Origin: Ignavibacteriota bacterium
Lineage (GTDB): Bacteria > Bacteroidota > Ignavibacteria > UBA10030
Reading direction: 5' to 3'
NCBI GenBank assembly: GCA_022616555.1
Contig: JAKEEG010000012.1
Location: forward strand, 8,263-72,262
Length of the DNA stretch: 64,000 nt
Below, one piece after another: positions 587 through 6,327 of the stretch. Positions within the stretch are counted from its first letter, which is position 1; every line of letters begins with the position of its first letter. Both the position numbers and the translations under genes were made by a program. Below the pieces are notes generated by a model. It made no database searches, was not told the DNA's origin, and saw nothing but the letters and a program-made list of their open reading frames with translations.

Positions 587-646
587 ATTGCCACGAACTT
601 TAGTTCGTGGATAAAGACTCGTCAAATTAAATGGGGTTTTAACCCC
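587..646 (+). repeat. Left bipartite REP-like end of the transposase cassette
   Basis: ATTG + hairpin CCACGAAC-TTTA-GTTCGTGG (591-610), then GGGGTT-TT-AACCCC (633-646). Inverted counterpart at 1084-1142. Confidence 0.85.
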
Positions 647-660
647 CACATATACCCTTT

Positions 661-1092
661 ATGCCCTACGTACGAGTGTGGATTCATATGGTTTGGTCAA
701 CTAAGGACTTTAAACCAGTTTTGGAAAAAGAGTTGAGAGAAAAACTGTACGCTCACATCAGGGAGAATGCAAAGTCCAAAAATATCTATCTTGATTGCAT
801 CAACGGATTTTTCGATCATGTCCACGTGCTGATCAGTTTAAAAGCGGACCAATCGCCTGCCAAAGTAGCTCAACTATTAAAGGGAGAATCGTCTCATTGG
901 TTGAATGATCAACAACTGACACCGGTAAGGTTCGAGTGGCAAAAGGAATACTTTGCGGTGTCTGTGAGTGAATCTTCGCTTGAAAACGTCCGCTCATATA
1001 TAAACAAACAGGAAGAGCATCACAGAAAAAAGATATTTAAAGAGGAGTATAATGAATTCATGCAAAAATACGGTTTTGCTGAAAGGGGTTAA
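661..1092 (+). mobile_element. tnpA: IS200/IS605-family (RAYT-like) HUH Y1 transposase, stand-alone, no tnpB
   Basis: 143 aa. HMVWSTK N-terminus, HUH motif DHVHVL, KGESSHW, FEWQKEY, catalytic-Tyr helix VRSYINKQEEHH. Confidence 0.9.
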
Positions 1093-1142
1093 AACCCCTT
1101 CTTCCAATTAATCATTATCCCCGACCTAAAGGTCGGGGCAAT
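1084..1142 (-). repeat. Right bipartite REP-like end (inverted copy of 587-646)
   Basis: AGGGGTT-AA-AACCCCT (1084-1099, contains the TnpA stop), then CCCCGACC-TAAA-GGTCGGGG-CAAT (1119-1142). Confidence 0.85.
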
Positions 1143-2663: not shown

Positions 2664-4169
2664 ATGTCGAGCAAACATCAACACGATGGTAAAGTAAACG
2701 GCGCGCGGCGCGGCGAACAGCTTCTCAAAAAATTGCGCGAGGATTCTCCCGAAATTTACTACGCGGGCGAGCGCGTGAAAGACGTCACCACACACCCGGC
2801 GTTTAAGAATGGCGTGCAAAGCCTCGCGGCGCTGTACGATTTGCAATGGAAACAACCGGACGTGATGCTCTACGATTCCCCCGCCTCCGGCAAAAAGGTT
2901 GGGCGCTCATTCATGATTGCGAAGACGCACGACGAACTCCGCAGCGTCAGCAAAATGATGAAAGCGTGGGCGGACGCGAGCTTCGGCATGATGGGTAGGT
3001 CGCCTGATTATTTAAATCGTGCGATGACGGCGTATGCCTCTGGGGTGGATTTTCTCATTCAGGCAAACCCGAAAGTCGGCAAGAACGCTCGTACCTATTA
3101 TGAGTATCTCCGCGAAAACGACCTATGCTTGACCCATACTCTCATCACACCGCAAGCGAACCGCGCTGTCAACACGGCAAAGCAAGCCGACCCCTACCTC
3201 GCCGCGCGCGTGAAGGAAGAAACCGACGCCGGTATCGTCATCCGCGGCTGCCGCATGCTCGCCACGCTTCCCGCAGCGGATGAAATCATGGTCTTCCCTT
3301 CTACTCTGTTGAAAAATCAGGAGGAGGACGCCCCCTATGCATTCGGGCTTGCGCTGCCGACAAACACGAAAGGACTGAAATTCCAATGCCGCGAGGCAGT
3401 CGACTACGGGCACTCACACTACGACCATCCTCTTGGCTCCCGGTTCGAGGAAATGGATGCTGTCGTGATCTTTGATGATGTGTTCGTGCCGTGGGAGAAT
3501 GTCTTCCTGTATCGCGACGTGAAAAGCTGCAACGAAGCCTATGCCCGCACGGGCGCAATCGTGAACATGTCGCATCAGGTCGTGGTGAAGAACATCGCGA
3601 AAACGGAATTCTTACTCGGCTTGACATCGCTCATGGCGCATACGATTGGGATTGAGACATTTCAGCATATTCAGGAGAAAATCGCCGAGATTTGGGTAAA
3701 CATGGAGACAATGAAAGCATTCCTTCGCGCAGCCGAAGCCGACGCAACGCTCGATGAATACGGTACGATGCGACCGGCGTGGAATCCGCTTGATGCAGCG
3801 CGCAATCTCTATCCACGATTGTACCCCCGCATGGTTGAAATCATTCAGCAGATGGGTGCGAGCGGGCTTGTTGCCATGCCAACCGAAGCAGACATGAACG
3901 GTCCGCTCTCCGAAGAAATCCAAAAATATTACCAAGCCGCACGTGCAGACGCGCACGAGCGCATCCCGCTATTCCGGCTGGCGTGGGATGCTGCGCTGTC
4001 TGCATTTGGCTCGCGGCAAGTACTGTACGAGCGGTTTTTCTTCGGCGACCCTGTACGGATGGCTGGAGCGCTCGTCGCCAATCATGACCGCACAGCCTAT
4101 ATGGACCGCGTGCGCGAGTTTCTCGCCCGCGCCAAGGAAGAAGCGGCTGCTGAAGCGACGAAATCGTAA
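2664..4169 (+). CDS. hpaB: 4-hydroxyphenylacetate 3-monooxygenase, oxygenase component
   Basis: GRSPDY, THTLITPQANR, RFEEMDAVVIFDDVFVPWENVF, RQVLYERFF. AAGGAG RBS upstream. Confidence 0.93.
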   Translation: MSSKHQHDGKVNGARRGEQLLKKLREDSPEIYYAGERVKDVTTHPAFKNGVQSLAALYDLQWKQPDVMLYDSPASGKKVGRSFMIAKTHDELRSVSKMMKAWADASFGMMGRSPDYLNRAMTAYASGVDFLIQANPKVGKNARTYYEYLRENDLCLTHTLITPQANRAVNTAKQADPYLAARVKEETDAGIVIRGCRMLATLPAADEIMVFPSTLLKNQEEDAPYAFGLALPTNTKGLKFQCREAVDYGHSHYDHPLGSRFEEMDAVVIFDDVFVPWENVFLYRDVKSCNEAYARTGAIVNMSHQVVVKNIAKTEFLLGLTSLMAHTIGIETFQHIQEKIAEIWVNMETMKAFLRAAEADATLDEYGTMRPAWNPLDAARNLYPRLYPRMVEIIQQMGASGLVAMPTEADMNGPLSEEIQKYYQAARADAHERIPLFRLAWDAALSAFGSRQVLYERFFFGDPVRMAGALVANHDRTAYMDRVREFLARAKEEAAAEATKS

Positions 4170-4172
4170 AGC

Positions 4173-4204
4173 GAGACCCCCTATAGTCCCCCTAAGAGGG
4201 GGAC
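4173..4204 (+). repeat. Left inverted hairpin repeat of the DUF559 cassette
   Basis: GAGACCCCCT (4173-4182), then hairpin GTCCCCCT-AAG-AGGGGGAC (4186-4204). Confidence 0.85.
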
Positions 4205-4224
4205 ACGTAGGATTGTAGAGTACT

Positions 4225-4623
4225 ATGAAACACAAACATCTCTCAGAGTATACAACGGCTAATGTTCCTATTGCACGAGTGCTTCGAGGGAATATGACCG
4301 TTGCGGAACGAAAGTTGTGGTCTCTACTGCGAAAAAATCAGCTTGGAGTCAGATTCCGGAGACAGGTTCCTCTACACGGTTATGTGCTAGATTTCTATTG
4401 TCCAAAAGCCAAACTTGATGTTGAACTCGATGGCAGCCAACACTACACAAGTCAGGGAGTGCGAAAGGACAAAGAACGAGACAATGATTTACAGAGAGAA
4501 GGGATAGCGGTTCTTCGTTTTGCATCTTCGGAGGTGTTCCAAAACCTTGAGGGTGTTATTCAGGCAATCATCAATGTAACTGAAGAGCAAATCGCACAGA
4601 AAAAAAATCTCTCCCCCTCTTAG
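4225..4623 (+). CDS. DUF559 / Vsr-like endonuclease-domain protein
   Basis: 132 aa. LRGNMTVAERKLWSLLR, FRRQVPLHGYVLDFYC, VELDGSQH, D..L...G..VLRF pattern. Confidence 0.88.
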   Translation: MKHKHLSEYTTANVPIARVLRGNMTVAERKLWSLLRKNQLGVRFRRQVPLHGYVLDFYCPKAKLDVELDGSQHYTSQGVRKDKERDNDLQREGIAVLRFASSEVFQNLEGVIQAIINVTEEQIAQKKNLSPS

Positions 4624-4645
4624 GGGGAGACCAAGAGGGGGTCTC
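4610..4645 (-). repeat. Right inverted hairpin repeat of the DUF559 cassette
   Basis: Hairpin TCTCCCCCT-CTT-AGGGGGAGA (4610-4630, contains the stop TAG), then AGGGGGTCTC (4636-4645), the exact reverse complement of 4173-4182. Confidence 0.85.
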
Positions 4646-4690
4646 AAGTAATCAGAACACCTCTTGCAATCGAAAAAAGATTATACTCCT

Positions 4691-5257
4691 ATGAGCGAAA
4701 TCATAGACCATCGCGCCTATAGACAAACTGTCGGACAATTTGCCACCGGCGTTTCGGTGATTGCGACCGAAACAAACGGCCAAGTGCACGGCATGACCGC
4801 AAATGCACTCACGTCGCTCTCGCTCGACCCAATGCTGATTCTCTTCTGCGTGGATAAGCGCGCGAAGATGACGGAGTTCTTGAAACATACCGAGGGGTTC
4901 TCAATCAATTTTTTGCGCGAAGACCAGCAGGCGCTCTCCACATACTTTGCGGGCGGGTGGAAACAGGAGAAAGCCCCACCCTTTCGCTTTGTGCCGTGGA
5001 CAGTCTGTCCGCGCCTTGAAGGCTGCGCGGCGGCAATCGCATGCAAACTACACGAGATGGTCGAAGGCGGCGACCACTGGATCGTCATCGGCAAGGTGCA
5101 GGCGCTCCACAAGGGCATCGAACCGCGCTACCCGCTGGTTTTTCACGGCGGGATGTATTGCAAACTCGACCATCGCGATCGCCAACCAGCTCCGCCTGAA
5201 CTCGACAAAGGCACTGCGGAAGTGGGAGTCTTCCTTGACCCATGGAAAAACGAATGA
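4691..5257 (+). CDS. hpaC: Flavin reductase, reductase component of 4-HPA monooxygenase
   Basis: YRQTVGQFATGVSVI, GMTANALTSLSLDP, EGGDHWIVIG. ATG 4691 preferred over the TTG start in the ORF track. Confidence 0.88.
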   Translation: MSEIIDHRAYRQTVGQFATGVSVIATETNGQVHGMTANALTSLSLDPMLILFCVDKRAKMTEFLKHTEGFSINFLREDQQALSTYFAGGWKQEKAPPFRFVPWTVCPRLEGCAAAIACKLHEMVEGGDHWIVIGKVQALHKGIEPRYPLVFHGGMYCKLDHRDRQPAPPELDKGTAEVGVFLDPWKNE

Positions 5258-6266: not shown

Positions 6267-6327
6267 GTAGCCGCAGGCTTCAGCCTGCGCAATAGCGACG
6301 ACAACGCAACCTAAAGGTTGCGACTAC
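6267..6327. repeat. Inverted GTAG-type REP doublet (REPIN/BIME-like) between convergent genes
   Basis: GTAG-C-CGCAGGC-TTCA-GCCTGCG on + (6267-6289) and GTAG-T-CGCAACC-TTTA-GGTTGCG on - (6305-6327). Confidence 0.85.

Follow-up and report, generated by a model that had tools for sequence, protein, structure and literature searches.

A 473-bp unit lying between hpaB and hpaC in the window, as the whole 64-kb stretch of DNA analysed here is called, raises the question of whether a small DUF559 nuclease gene and the two inverted repeats that bracket it form a selfish unit, with the enzyme acting on the repeats as RAYT does on REPs. The original prediction had described a cassette between these two genes with perfect 10-nt terminal inverted repeats, an inner hairpin at either end, a single gene and no evident target-site duplication, and each of these features was recovered upon re-analysis. 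The locus is arranged as follows.

2664-4169, plus strand: hpaB (4-hydroxyphenylacetate 3-monooxygenase, oxygenase component), the left host flank
4170-4172, plus strand: AGC, separating the left repeat from the hpaB stop; locus L248 has these 3 bases as well
4173-4204, minus strand: left triplex-type repeat, BoxC/PIT/TM-like, class II purine motif, 7 triads with 0 mismatches (hairpin 4186-4204; spacer 4183-4186; third strand or "tail" 4173-4182)
4225-4623, plus strand: DUF559/YcjD-like gene for a predicted Vsr-fold nuclease, 132 aa, with a PF04480 match
4610-4645, plus strand: right triplex-type repeat, 9 triads with 0 mismatches (hairpin 4610-4630; third strand 4634-4642)
4646-4690, plus strand: 45 nt from the right repeat to the hpaC start, with no counterpart where hpaB abuts hpaC
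4691-5257, plus strand: hpaC-like flavin reductase, the right host flank

The terminal repeats are GAGACCCCCT (4173-4182) and AGGGGGTCTC (4636-4645), and the inner hairpins read GTCCCCCT-AAG-AGGGGGAC on the left and TCTCCCCCT-CTT-AGGGGGAGA on the right. At the eighth base pair the left hairpin has G:C and the right one C:G, so that the outer pair is swapped yet still paired, as expected of a compensatory change, while the 17-nt cores of the two hairpins are 100% complementary. Because the loops AAG and CTT are reverse complements, the two copies are inverted with respect to each other, and the tails of both are directed away from the gene. The 132-aa DUF559 reading frame is the only gene of the unit, and its TAG stop (4621-4623) falls within the right hairpin, in its loop and 3' arm. 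The AGC at 4170-4172 may be part of the unit, given that the same bases precede the left repeat of L248. A "TAA" is present on either side of the unit and is too short to carry any meaning. The G+C content of the unit is about 44-45%, against 55-60% for its neighbours.

The 10-nt "terminal repeat" was rejected as a separate element, being the third strand of a three-part motif in which a pyrimidine arm, a loop and a purine arm are followed by a short spacer and then by a mirror image of the purine arm that is rich in G and T. Judged by their sequence, the window repeats are assignable to the known BoxC/PIT/TM intrastrand-triplex motif type and not to mere hairpins. By the published definition of that type, the purine arm is followed on its 3' side by an antiparallel mirror third strand that pairs in G.G and A.A/T.A triads, the loops being 1-6 nt long (PMC4666352). 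In the window, perfect Watson-Crick stems of 8 and 9 bp with 3-nt loops are accompanied by third strands forming the 7 and 9 mismatch-free triads listed above, across second loops of 4 and 3 nt. The left repeat reads TCCCCCT-CTT-AGGGGGA-CTAT-AGGGGGT(CTC) on the minus strand, and the right repeat, on the plus strand, TCTCCCCCT-CTT-AGGGGGAGA-CCA-AGAGGGGGT(CTC). As single-stranded DNA the left hairpin folds at -8.9 kcal/mol (z -2.6), a calculation that models hairpins only. Where the purine arms of homologue loci were clearly asymmetric, the tail was a mirror copy of the arm in 70 cases, a direct copy in 13 and a tie in 13, and an alternative hairpin formed by a direct-copy tail was rejected on this 70 to 13 preference. 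A G-quadruplex is possible for GGGAGAGGG...GGGTGAGGG variants; it is not general, the window units having two G5 runs each. The unit matched none of the known RNA families. On the minus strand the right repeat is followed by a T8 run and resembles an intrinsic terminator.

Chance occurrence of the repeats was considered at three levels. The 10-mer alone, with up to one mismatch, gave 3 matches in 64 kb against 2.0 expected, which is not significant. By comparison, CCCCCTNNNAGGGGG occurred twice per 64 kb against 0.06 expected, and the full triplex-type motif was found twice in the window and in none of 20 shuffled windows. Both full motifs lie at the DUF559 gene, and no further copy of the gene or of the repeats was present elsewhere in the window.

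Motifs of this kind have been known since 1992, as BoxC (Bergler 1992; Bachellier 1999), PIT elements (Hoyne/Maher 2000) and "TM" (Holder et al. 2015, PMC4666352), and occur in more than 260 genomes, including those of E. coli, Haemophilus, Neisseria, Pseudomonas and cyanobacteria. Triplex formation by a single strand was established by CD and NMR for the E. coli sequence only, and Holder et al. detected a stable triplex neither on duplex DNA nor in vivo (PMC4666352). The same study associated the repeats with polymerase stalling and local instability, sought a mobility function and found none, and treated the motifs as orphan repeats, with no mention of ycjD, DUF559 or any endonuclease (PMC4666352). 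In the literature searched, no paper was found linking DUF559 nucleases with BoxC/PIT/TM repeats, nor is a biochemical link known between any DUF559 protein and these repeats.

The protein encoded between the repeats belongs to the DUF559 family, matching PF04480 over profile positions 6-107 of 109 with 111.5 bits (cut-off 20.6; E 2.4e-32). A database gene call places its start at an internal ATG (4294; 109 aa); the start at 4225 is supported because the N-terminus M(K/H)(K/R)H..Y is kept in the closest homologues. Among 32 sequences, T25, W32, R46, D56, F57, D69, G70, H73, D82, R85, G93 and R98 do not vary, and E67 hardly does. The nuclease core is thus intact, and an AF2 model (pLDDT 88) shows a restriction-endonuclease-like fold. 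The best structural matches of the model were 3hrl (TM 0.88, rmsd 2.2 Å), which was also detected by phmmer (E 2.9e-15), and the catalytic domain of the homing endonuclease I-Bth0305I, the closest characterised match in Foldseek (prob 1.0, TM 0.80), marginal by sequence (E 0.07). As its score against the YcjD equivalog model NF007294/PRK09767 was 73.3 bits, below the cut-off of 218, the protein is a relative of YcjD and not an equivalog. Proteins of this kind carry the JGI label "very-short-patch-repair endonuclease"; for the window protein, PF03852 gave no match and 1vsr only a weak one (E 0.07, TM 0.40), and no cytosine methyltransferase lies beside the gene, its neighbours being hpaB and hpaC. 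Membership of a defence system was not adopted, PADLOC returning weak matches only.

The cassette, which had been put forward as mobile, is not fixed at hpaB-hpaC. The closest relatives of the window's HpaB come from "Bacteroidota bacterium" MAGs, and four relatives with HpaB 86-91% identical lack the unit: in two (L096 and L097) hpaC overlaps or abuts the hpaB stop, and in the other two (L094 and L095) a different insert is found. One further locus, L248, carries a module at the same site as the window, and L094 is without it even though its hpaC is 97.8% identical to that of L248 at the nucleotide level. Between the window and L248 the left repeats are 88.6% and the right repeats 87.8% identical, compared with 80% for the neighbouring genes and 65.5% for the nuclease ORF, which makes the repeats the most constrained part of the unit. 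Similarity ends directly after GGTCTC, and the 45 nt at 4646-4690 show no detectable similarity to the 44 nt in the same place in L248 (p = 0.17). No target-site duplication was seen at the window unit, at L248 or at the gene-less doublets described below.

Insertion at the same place after the hpaB stop in two lineages, with a close relative empty, is also what a free-standing homing-endonuclease gene might produce, by cutting an empty allele or a doublet and being copied in by recombinational repair, the triplex repeats then serving as landing pads or homology arms and not as substrates multiplied by the enzyme. The likeness to the I-Bth0305I catalytic domain and a weak PADLOC "homing endonuclease" match agree with this explanation. 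The empty hpaB-hpaC sites, however, contain no repeat at all, so that here the repeats came with the gene, and we consider homing an unlikely account of the unit.

If nuclease and repeats belong together, homologous genes should carry such flanks, and this expectation was borne out across many phyla. In a sample of 84 DUF559 loci, a pyrimidine/purine hairpin was present within 150 nt of the gene in 75 and on both sides in 40. The density of these hairpins within 150 nt was 5.6 per kb upstream and 5.5 per kb downstream, falling to 0.08 per kb beyond 1.5 kb and to 0 inside the DUF559 gene. Full motifs occurred at 2.7 per kb within 250 nt of the gene against 0.055 per kb far away (more than 1 kb), a difference of about 50-fold, and the type of repeat follows the protein clade across phyla. 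Extra hairpins are polymorphic, and they sit exactly where the spacer meets the third strand (L001 against L002; L004 against L008), pointing to that junction as a break site. A 33-nt repeat flanking the L001/L002 module was considered as a long target duplication and judged less likely; it more likely represents two copies of a methylase-like C-terminal motif, "YELYGLTEEE", also present in L250. Co-orientation of the gene with its neighbours (83% upstream, 78% downstream) was not taken as a signal, as it does not clearly exceed the usual level for pairs of bacterial genes.

This co-location could in principle be passive, with independent REP-like repeats gathering at a neutral acquired gene, or insulating or terminating it, without any enzymatic relationship. 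Most repeats do lie far from any DUF559 gene: when 93 motifs were selected by pattern from 549 kb of metagenome DNA, a DUF559 gene was found within 300 nt of 10 (11%), leaving about 89% with none nearby. Likewise, the gene at L022, L014 and L064 adjoins arrays of 4-7 units, which recall junk-tolerant spots, and the terminator-like right end of the window unit would suit a terminating role. Against this, full motifs in other non-ORF DNA of the same 84 loci reached only 0.24 per kb, so that an 11-fold enrichment near the gene persists even relative to non-coding DNA. DUF559 was also the commonest neighbour family of the pattern-selected motifs, albeit narrowly (4, against 3 for ABC transporters and helicase domains, in 127 ORFs and 170 Pfam families), and no other specific family recurs; the 25 families listed as the commonest neighbours include neither a transposase nor an integrase nor Y1. 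Since the window holds exactly two motifs, both at the gene, since its repeats are conserved better than the gene itself, and since PIT elements showed neither promoter nor terminator activity in earlier work (cited in PMC4666352), passive gathering is judged improbable.

The orientation of the flanks bears on a further alternative, in which the inverted repeats are recombination sites of a programmed inversion switch that flips the gene. An inverted-repeat survey found "DUF559 domain-containing protein" 14-fold enriched among predicted programmed-inversion targets (PMC9881135), an enrichment most simply seen as a by-product of flanking inverted repeats. All four combinations of flank orientation were encountered, tails-in outnumbering tails-out by about 2:1, and direct-orientation flanks, which do not suit such a switch, are common (27 of 81 loci). 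With no recombinase nearby, and with a whole-gene flip altering no coding sequence, an inversion switch is highly improbable.

The repeats also occur away from the gene, as the original prediction required of a mobile unit, in the form of gene-less singlets and doublets with the same termini and, in E. coli, of the BoxC family of about 20 copies. The window's repeat sequence type is itself dispersed in other metagenome contigs, and gene-less tails-out doublets of about 110-140 nt with the window termini AGACCCCCT...AGGGGGTCT were found at L133, L169, L135, L174 and L178. Two different sites in HrpA, and one in an aminotransferase, carry whole modules inserted in frame. At one of the HrpA sites an ortholog carries a gene-less in-frame doublet where others have the doublet plus gene, a pattern that again suits homing. 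At L062, on the other hand, the gene lies beside a doublet and not within it, and homing leaves unexplained both the hundreds of gene-less repeats and a repeat type that tracks the protein clade.

In E. coli, a degenerate motif covers the stop codon of ycjD, and about 170 nt downstream lies a full BoxC that matches the published TM_ECO type A; this BoxC is upstream of fabI (envM), the place of the first BoxC description. The ycjD module alternates at this locus with the eef operon, at least two independent replacements being inferred by the authors (PMC12817139), which would also be consistent with homing; the BoxC adjoining ycjD is absent in the alternative eef allele. Among the genomes sampled, the median number of BoxC-like places was 18 where the ycjD allele was present (37 genomes) and 4 where it was absent (23 genomes), a difference confounded by phylogroup, as O157-type genomes without ycjD have 12-13 copies, like some ycjD-positive genomes. 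BoxC-like copies are kept in all 5426 of 5426 E. coli genomes, 38% of which are without ycjD at the locus.

The DUF559 family is very large, with about 24,000 clusters at 50% identity at E <=0.001 and about 9,800 at E <=1e-10, and is rarely carried by phages (28 matches among 2.9 million viral contigs, many of them at the end of a contig) or plasmids (35 of 72,556 records, for the most part megaplasmids). Synteny of the gene extends across genera, between Pseudomonas and Azomonas and between Haemophilus and Bibersteinia. Synteny in Pseudomonas and the Pasteurellaceae suggests a long-term resident that is not actively hopping, so that any mobility is low; it would also fit allele-level spread by homing. 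Long-term, syntenic conservation is equally expected of a host maintenance nuclease that processes or repairs the hairpin/triplex structures or mismatches made by the repeats in replication, and that adjoins them by co-inheritance or local regulation without spreading them. Vsr, a fold relative, is a repair nickase; the Caulobacter DUF559 protein VsrA acts on chromosomal DNA, with an SOS response when the methylase is missing (PMC12907096); and the polymerase stalling and local instability mentioned above point the same way. A trans-acting repair enzyme, however, needs no repeats within 150 nt on both sides, yet about half of the loci have them, and neither the in-frame repeat-gene-repeat modules in other genes, nor doublets with module termini, nor arrival with foreign G+C content is explained. 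A maintenance role is accordingly rated as distinctly unlikely.

The explanation that we favour, at even confidence and no higher, is that the unit belongs to a widespread nuclease-repeat partnership, RAYT/REP-like in its logic and built on an unrelated enzyme, in which the DUF559 family may be the missing partner of the BoxC/PIT repeats. The nuclease would recognise its cognate repeat, in which the hairpin and the mirror G/T strand can fold as a triplex on single-stranded DNA, and would nick at or beside it, most likely in the short xTAx spacer that separates the purine arm from the third strand. The repeats would then be spread and homogenised by repair or copy-choice, appearing as singlets, gene-less doublets and occasionally a whole repeat-gene-repeat module, while the gene would persist mostly as a single copy, vertically inherited and occasionally transferred. 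Binding, cutting, the position of the cut and the origin of the copies are here all inferred. More tentatively, and with doubt prevailing, DUF559/YcjD proteins might recognise the folded hairpin-plus-third-strand itself and so be the source of BoxC/PIT repeats, and the agent of their spread and homogenisation, in hundreds of bacterial species.

Several observations weigh against the partnership. A PD-(D/E)xK-type nuclease of about 110 aa cuts DNA and cannot rejoin it, there is no target-site duplication, and the flanks come in four orientations, unlike fixed transposon ends. The large share of repeats with no DUF559 gene nearby, the absence of any other copy from the 64-kb window, the retention of BoxC in every E. 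coli genome, the phylogroup confounding of the E. coli copy numbers, the cross-genus synteny and the negative triplex results of Holder et al. for duplex DNA and in vivo are further counterpoints. The selfish unit with RAYT/REP-like logic that was originally proposed stands as the best reading, but is supported only in part: cutting of its own repeats by the nuclease is presumed, the repeats are not new, being of the BoxC/PIT/TM type, and the gene behaves as a long-term resident in Pseudomonas and the Pasteurellaceae.

A link between BoxC/PIT/TM repeats and DUF559 would give each, both so far without a function, a testable role, and would address a repeat family whose origin has gone without explanation for 30 years. 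It would also provide a second, mechanistically different case of a repeat family plus guardian gene, so far represented by REP/RAYT only. As E. coli K-12 carries the pair (ycjD and 23 TMs), the hypothesis is open to standard genetics and biochemistry. The in-frame modules in HrpA and the aminotransferase bear on the tolerance of selfish DNA within proteins, and recognition of structure, if true, would define a new class of non-transposase, DNA-structure-guided selfish element, present even in frame in genes.

Compared with known systems, the window repeats share with BoxC/PIT/TM the three-part design, the second loop of 3-4 nt, the class II purine motif and an inverted pairing also seen for some E. 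coli TMs; they differ in having C5/G5 arms instead of CCCTCTCCC/GGGAGAGGG and in bracketing a nuclease gene, the published motifs being orphans. A classical DNA transposon or IS was rejected: terminal inverted repeats are present, but the single ORF encodes a nuclease of about 130 aa, with no DDE, HUH, serine or tyrosine transposase and no target-site duplication. Rickettsia palindromic elements and MITEs are short palindromes that can insert in frame in protein genes and persist there, and the doublets share termini with the gene-bearing unit as MITEs do with their parent transposon; here, in contrast, there is no transposase and no target-site duplication, and structure and taxonomic range differ. 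With I-Bth0305I and homing genes the unit shares the predicted catalytic fold, presence or absence at one site and a compact, selfish-looking form, whereas it has no intron or intein, known homing genes are not bracketed by dispersed repeats, and I-Bth0305I has an extra DNA-binding region. With Vsr it shares the fold superfamily, differing in the weak structural match, the absence of PF03852 and the lack of a methyltransferase neighbour. A classical RAYT/REP example happens to lie within the same window, at 587-1142. With RAYT/REP(IN) systems the unit has in common a small gene between inverted copies of a cognate hairpin repeat, numerous singlets and inverted doublets without a gene elsewhere, a repeat type that tracks the protein clade, and a gene that is mostly single-copy and vertically inherited. 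It differs in that its nuclease is of the Vsr-like PD-(D/E)xK type and not HUH/Y1, without HUH cleavage and rejoining, and in that its repeats, on which the enzyme would act, have a third, triplex-forming strand. As the gene is a DUF559 and not a PF01797 member, the unit is best described as an analogue of the RAYT/REP system and not as one of its members.

The sequence features of the DUF559 unit claimed in the original prediction were borne out at window positions 4173-4645. A perfect 10-nt inverted repeat (GAGACCCCCT, 4173-4182, and AGGGGGTCTC, 4636-4645) encloses two inner hairpins, whose copies are inverted since their loops (AAG and CTT) are reverse complements, and the bases said to differ while remaining paired were found at the eighth base pair, G:C in one hairpin and C:G in the other. 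The single gene inside the unit is a DUF559 open reading frame, with its stop codon within the right hairpin. In 64 kb the hairpin core is present twice where 0.06 occurrences would be expected, the G+C content of the unit is about 44-45% versus 55-60% in its surroundings, and no other copy of the gene or of the repeat was found within the 64-kb window.

Features of the unit and its flanks (window positions)
2664-4169: hpaB, flank of the unit
4186-4204: left hairpin, GTCCCCCT-AAG-AGGGGGAC
4225-4623: DUF559 open reading frame (profile match to PF04480, E 2.4e-32)
4610-4630: right hairpin, TCTCCCCCT-CTT-AGGGGGAGA
4691-5257: flavin reductase gene hpaC, flank of the unit
Left repeat in full, minus strand: TCCCCCT-CTT-AGGGGGA-CTAT-AGGGGGT
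Right repeat in full, plus strand: TCTCCCCCT-CTT-AGGGGGAGA-CCA-AGAGGGGGT

The 10-nt "terminal repeat", present and perfect as described, proved to be no separate feature, being instead the G-rich third strand of a three-part motif. Each purine arm is followed by a spacer of 3-4 nt and then by a G-rich stretch that mirrors this arm, except that T stands in place of the terminal A in both repeats. The two repeats obey the pairing rules of an intrastrand triplex of the purine motif (G.G-C, A.A-T and T.A-T) over 7 and 9 triads, with no mismatches; no other triplex motif lies in the window, and none turned up in 20 shuffled versions of it. At those homologue loci whose purine arms are clearly asymmetric, the third strand fitted a mirror copy better in 70 cases and a direct copy better in 13, with 13 ties. 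Judged by sequence, the repeats share the three-part design of a known class, termed BoxC, PIT elements or "TM" intrastrand triplex motifs (Holder et al. 2015, PMC4666352). BoxC was first reported upstream of envM (fabI) in E. coli; 23 TMs are present in MG1655 and others in more than 260 genomes, and a TM single strand folds as a triplex in vitro (PMC4666352). That paper mentions neither ycjD nor DUF559 nor any endonuclease. At window 4600-4641, read on the minus strand, a T8 run comes after the hairpin of the right repeat, and the whole matches the intrinsic-terminator pattern, which could provide a stop for antisense transcription entering the nuclease gene.

The encoded protein has an N-terminus, from 4225, that is conserved in its closest homologues, and its residues D56, F57, D69, G70 and H73 are invariant, with E67 nearly so. 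The predicted structure is confident (pLDDT 88). The structures most similar to it are 3hrl, itself a DUF559 protein (TM 0.88), and the catalytic domain of a homing endonuclease, I-Bth0305I (probability 1.0, TM 0.80), the match to Vsr being weak. On the YcjD equivalog profile the protein reaches 73 bits where 218 are required, which marks it as related to YcjD but not as its equivalog.

Similar flanking hairpins, as sought by the original prediction, were found at most homologues. The 84 non-redundant loci examined encode proteins 41-64% identical to the window protein and span Pseudomonas, Pasteurellaceae, Nitrospirota, Clostridia, Alpha- and Betaproteobacteria, Melainabacteria, Saccharibacteria, Chlorobaculum, Planctomycetota, WOR-3 and others; 75 carry at least one hairpin within 150 nt of the gene, and 40 carry hairpins on both sides. 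Pyrimidine/purine hairpins reach 5.6/kb in the 150 nt upstream and 5.5/kb in the 150 nt downstream, compared with none inside the DUF559 gene and 0.08/kb beyond 1.5 kb. Full triplex motifs reach 2.7/kb within 250 nt of the gene, versus 0.055/kb far away and 0.24/kb in the remaining non-ORF DNA of these loci. The repeat sequence varies by lineage (CCCTCTCCC/GGGAGAGGG/GGGTGAGGG; TCCCCCTTT/AAAGGGGGA/AGGGGGATT; CCTTCCCCC/GGGGGAAGG/GGATGGGGG; and others) while the design stays constant, and repeat type tracks the protein tree, even between phyla. Passive co-location of repeats and gene is a less likely reading of this pairing. Third strands pointing at the gene are the most frequent arrangement, by about 2:1; the opposite, tails-out arrangement of the window is also frequent, and direct orientations and arrays occur as well. 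Programmed inversion of the gene is unlikely: DUF559 is enriched among predicted inversion targets (PMC9881135), but this enrichment is probably a by-product of the flanking repeats.

The pairing was also viewed from the side of the repeat. Searching metagenome contigs by pattern for the window repeat type yielded 93 motifs at 80 loci (549 kb); for 10 of them (11%), a DUF559 gene is no more than 300 nt away. The ORFs next to the motifs number 127, and among their 170 Pfam families DUF559 ranks first by a narrow lead: it has 4 members, and generic families (ABC transporters and helicase domains, for example) have 3. The 25 neighbour families listed as most frequent include no transposase, integrase or Y1 family. 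The remaining motifs are singlets and doublets. Gene-less doublets of about 110-140 nt at five loci (L133, L169, L135, L174 and L178) share the termini AGACCCCCT...AGGGGGTCT and the tails-out geometry of the window unit.

Comparison of hpaB-hpaC spacers showed the module to be variable in relatives. In L096 and L097 (HpaB 86-87% identical) the stop codon of hpaB overlaps the start of hpaC or directly adjoins it, and in L094 and L095 (91% identical) the junction is occupied by a different two-gene insert; none of the four has a triplex motif. L248, with the closest homologue of the nuclease (61-64% at the amino acid level), carries the module directly after the hpaB stop, the same place as in the window, with repeats nearly identical in kind and ahead of a two-gene insert of the L094/L095 type. 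Its hpaC is 97.8% identical in nucleotides to that of L094, and of this pair L248 alone has the module. Between the window and L248, identity is 88-89% in the repeats, which are therefore the most constrained part, about 80% in neighbouring genes, 65.5% in the nuclease ORF and 50% in the spacer ahead of the ATG. On the right-hand side of the unit, similarity stops exactly at GGTCTC. The pattern may reflect either a single old insertion that was later lost in some relatives or several insertions at the same site. The first gene of the insert encodes a 159-aa membrane-like protein of no Pfam family, its start codon displaced by the DUF559 module in L248, and the other a 211-aa protein with repeated helix-hairpin-helix motifs and a signal-like N-terminus.

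Two-gene insert at hpaB-hpaC
L094, 5522-6623
L095, 3067-4168
L248, 715-1777

Elsewhere the module lies between sdhA and sdhB (L003) or in frame inside other genes, its repeats being translated as linker peptides, and the family search lists several long proteins with a DUF559 stretch inside.

In-frame DUF559 modules
L062, 4239-8636: HrpA helicase, first position
L037, 4194-7700: HrpA helicase, same position as L062
L024, 344-5032: HrpA helicase, other position
L031, 3990-5942: class-III aminotransferase, between FACEQA and GVP..PD

At the HrpA site where L062 and L037 have doublet and gene, the ortholog L024 has a gene-less in-frame doublet; its HrpA contains two such doublets in total. The main rival explanation is a homing-endonuclease-like gene for which particular alleles or doublets serve as landing sites. 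The DUF559 gene is syntenic between Pseudomonas and Azomonas and between Haemophilus and Bibersteinia, and is rare in viral contigs and plasmids, so that it behaves mainly as a chromosomal resident; a host repair role of the nuclease is a less likely alternative. At three loci (L001, L002 and L250), closely related modules are found at the 3' end of genes that terminate in "YELYGLTEEE(R/I)KI", a motif typical of DNA-methylase-like proteins, with a second copy of it downstream of the module.

In E. coli K-12, ycjD (b1289, DUF559) lies between sapF and fabI, with a degenerate motif over its stop codon and a full BoxC (CCCCTCGCCCCTCTGGGGAGAGGGTTAGGGTGAGGGG) about 170 nt downstream, in the very region upstream of envM (fabI) of the first BoxC report; a duplicate of about 44 nt of the ycjD 3' end separates the two (L098 7160-7430, the ycjD-fabI spacer). 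The ycjD allele is present in 3,346 of 5,426 complete E. coli genomes, the others having the eef efflux operon at that place (PMC12817139), and the eef strain inspected has no BoxC next to fabI. Counted in 60 evenly spaced genomes, BoxC-like places had a median of 18 (range 12-26) where the ycjD allele is present (n=37) and of 4 (range 1-13) where it is missing (n=23; Mann-Whitney p = 5e-10), a difference that is only suggestive, being confounded by phylogroup. The published TM_ECO 1+2 inverted doublet (L251, K-12 164,547-164,631) directly follows hrpB, whose paralogue hrpA is the gene with in-frame modules in Gallionellaceae; this placement is probably a coincidence.

In the preferred model, the predicted nuclease would nick at or beside the repeat, folded or duplex, and repair or copy-choice would then spread repeats and sometimes the whole module. 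The spacer/third-strand junction is a possible cut site, as this is precisely where small additional hairpins are present in some loci and not in others: L001 and L002, and likewise L004 and L008, differ by a hairpin-containing segment of 40 or 55 nt, placed upstream of the DUF559 gene where the spacer (TTAG) of the upstream triplex motif meets its third strand. In Alphaproteobacteria and Clostridia this position holds a fixed second hairpin. Repeats and protein family are both known; full-text searches, over an incomplete set of journals such that an earlier mention is possible, returned no paper linking DUF559, COG2852 or ycjD with BoxC, PIT or intrastrand triplexes.

A classical RAYT-type example lies 3.5 kb from the DUF559 unit, at window 587-1142. 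This one-gene unit (G+C about 40%) has a like architecture and sits between an FAA-hydrolase-like gene and an aldehyde dehydrogenase gene; a Y1_Tnp gene is present at the corresponding place in L094 and absent from L096 and L097. A short-hairpin doublet further on resembles the hairpins around the RAYT-like gene and may represent REP copies belonging to it.

RAYT-like unit and doublet (window positions)
587-617 and 1112-1142: outer inverted hairpins, CCACGAACT-TT-AGTTCGTGG and CCCCGACCT-AA-AGGTCGGGG
633-646 and 1085-1098: inner inverted hairpin repeats, GGGGTTTTAACCCC and GGGGTTAAAACCCC
661-1092: IS200/Y1-type (RAYT-like) transposase ORF (PF01797, E 1e-25)
6272-6322: short-hairpin doublet just after a dioxygenase gene, CGCAGGCT-TC-AGCCTGCG and CGCAACCT-AA-AGGTTGCG

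The DUF559 enzyme differs from RAYT in its unrelated fold, and in that it can cut but cannot rejoin. In other respects it resembles REP/REPIN and RAYT: a small enzyme gene is enclosed by two of its own repeats in inverted orientation, many singlets and doublets lack the gene, repeat type varies along with the protein, and inheritance has been vertical over long periods.
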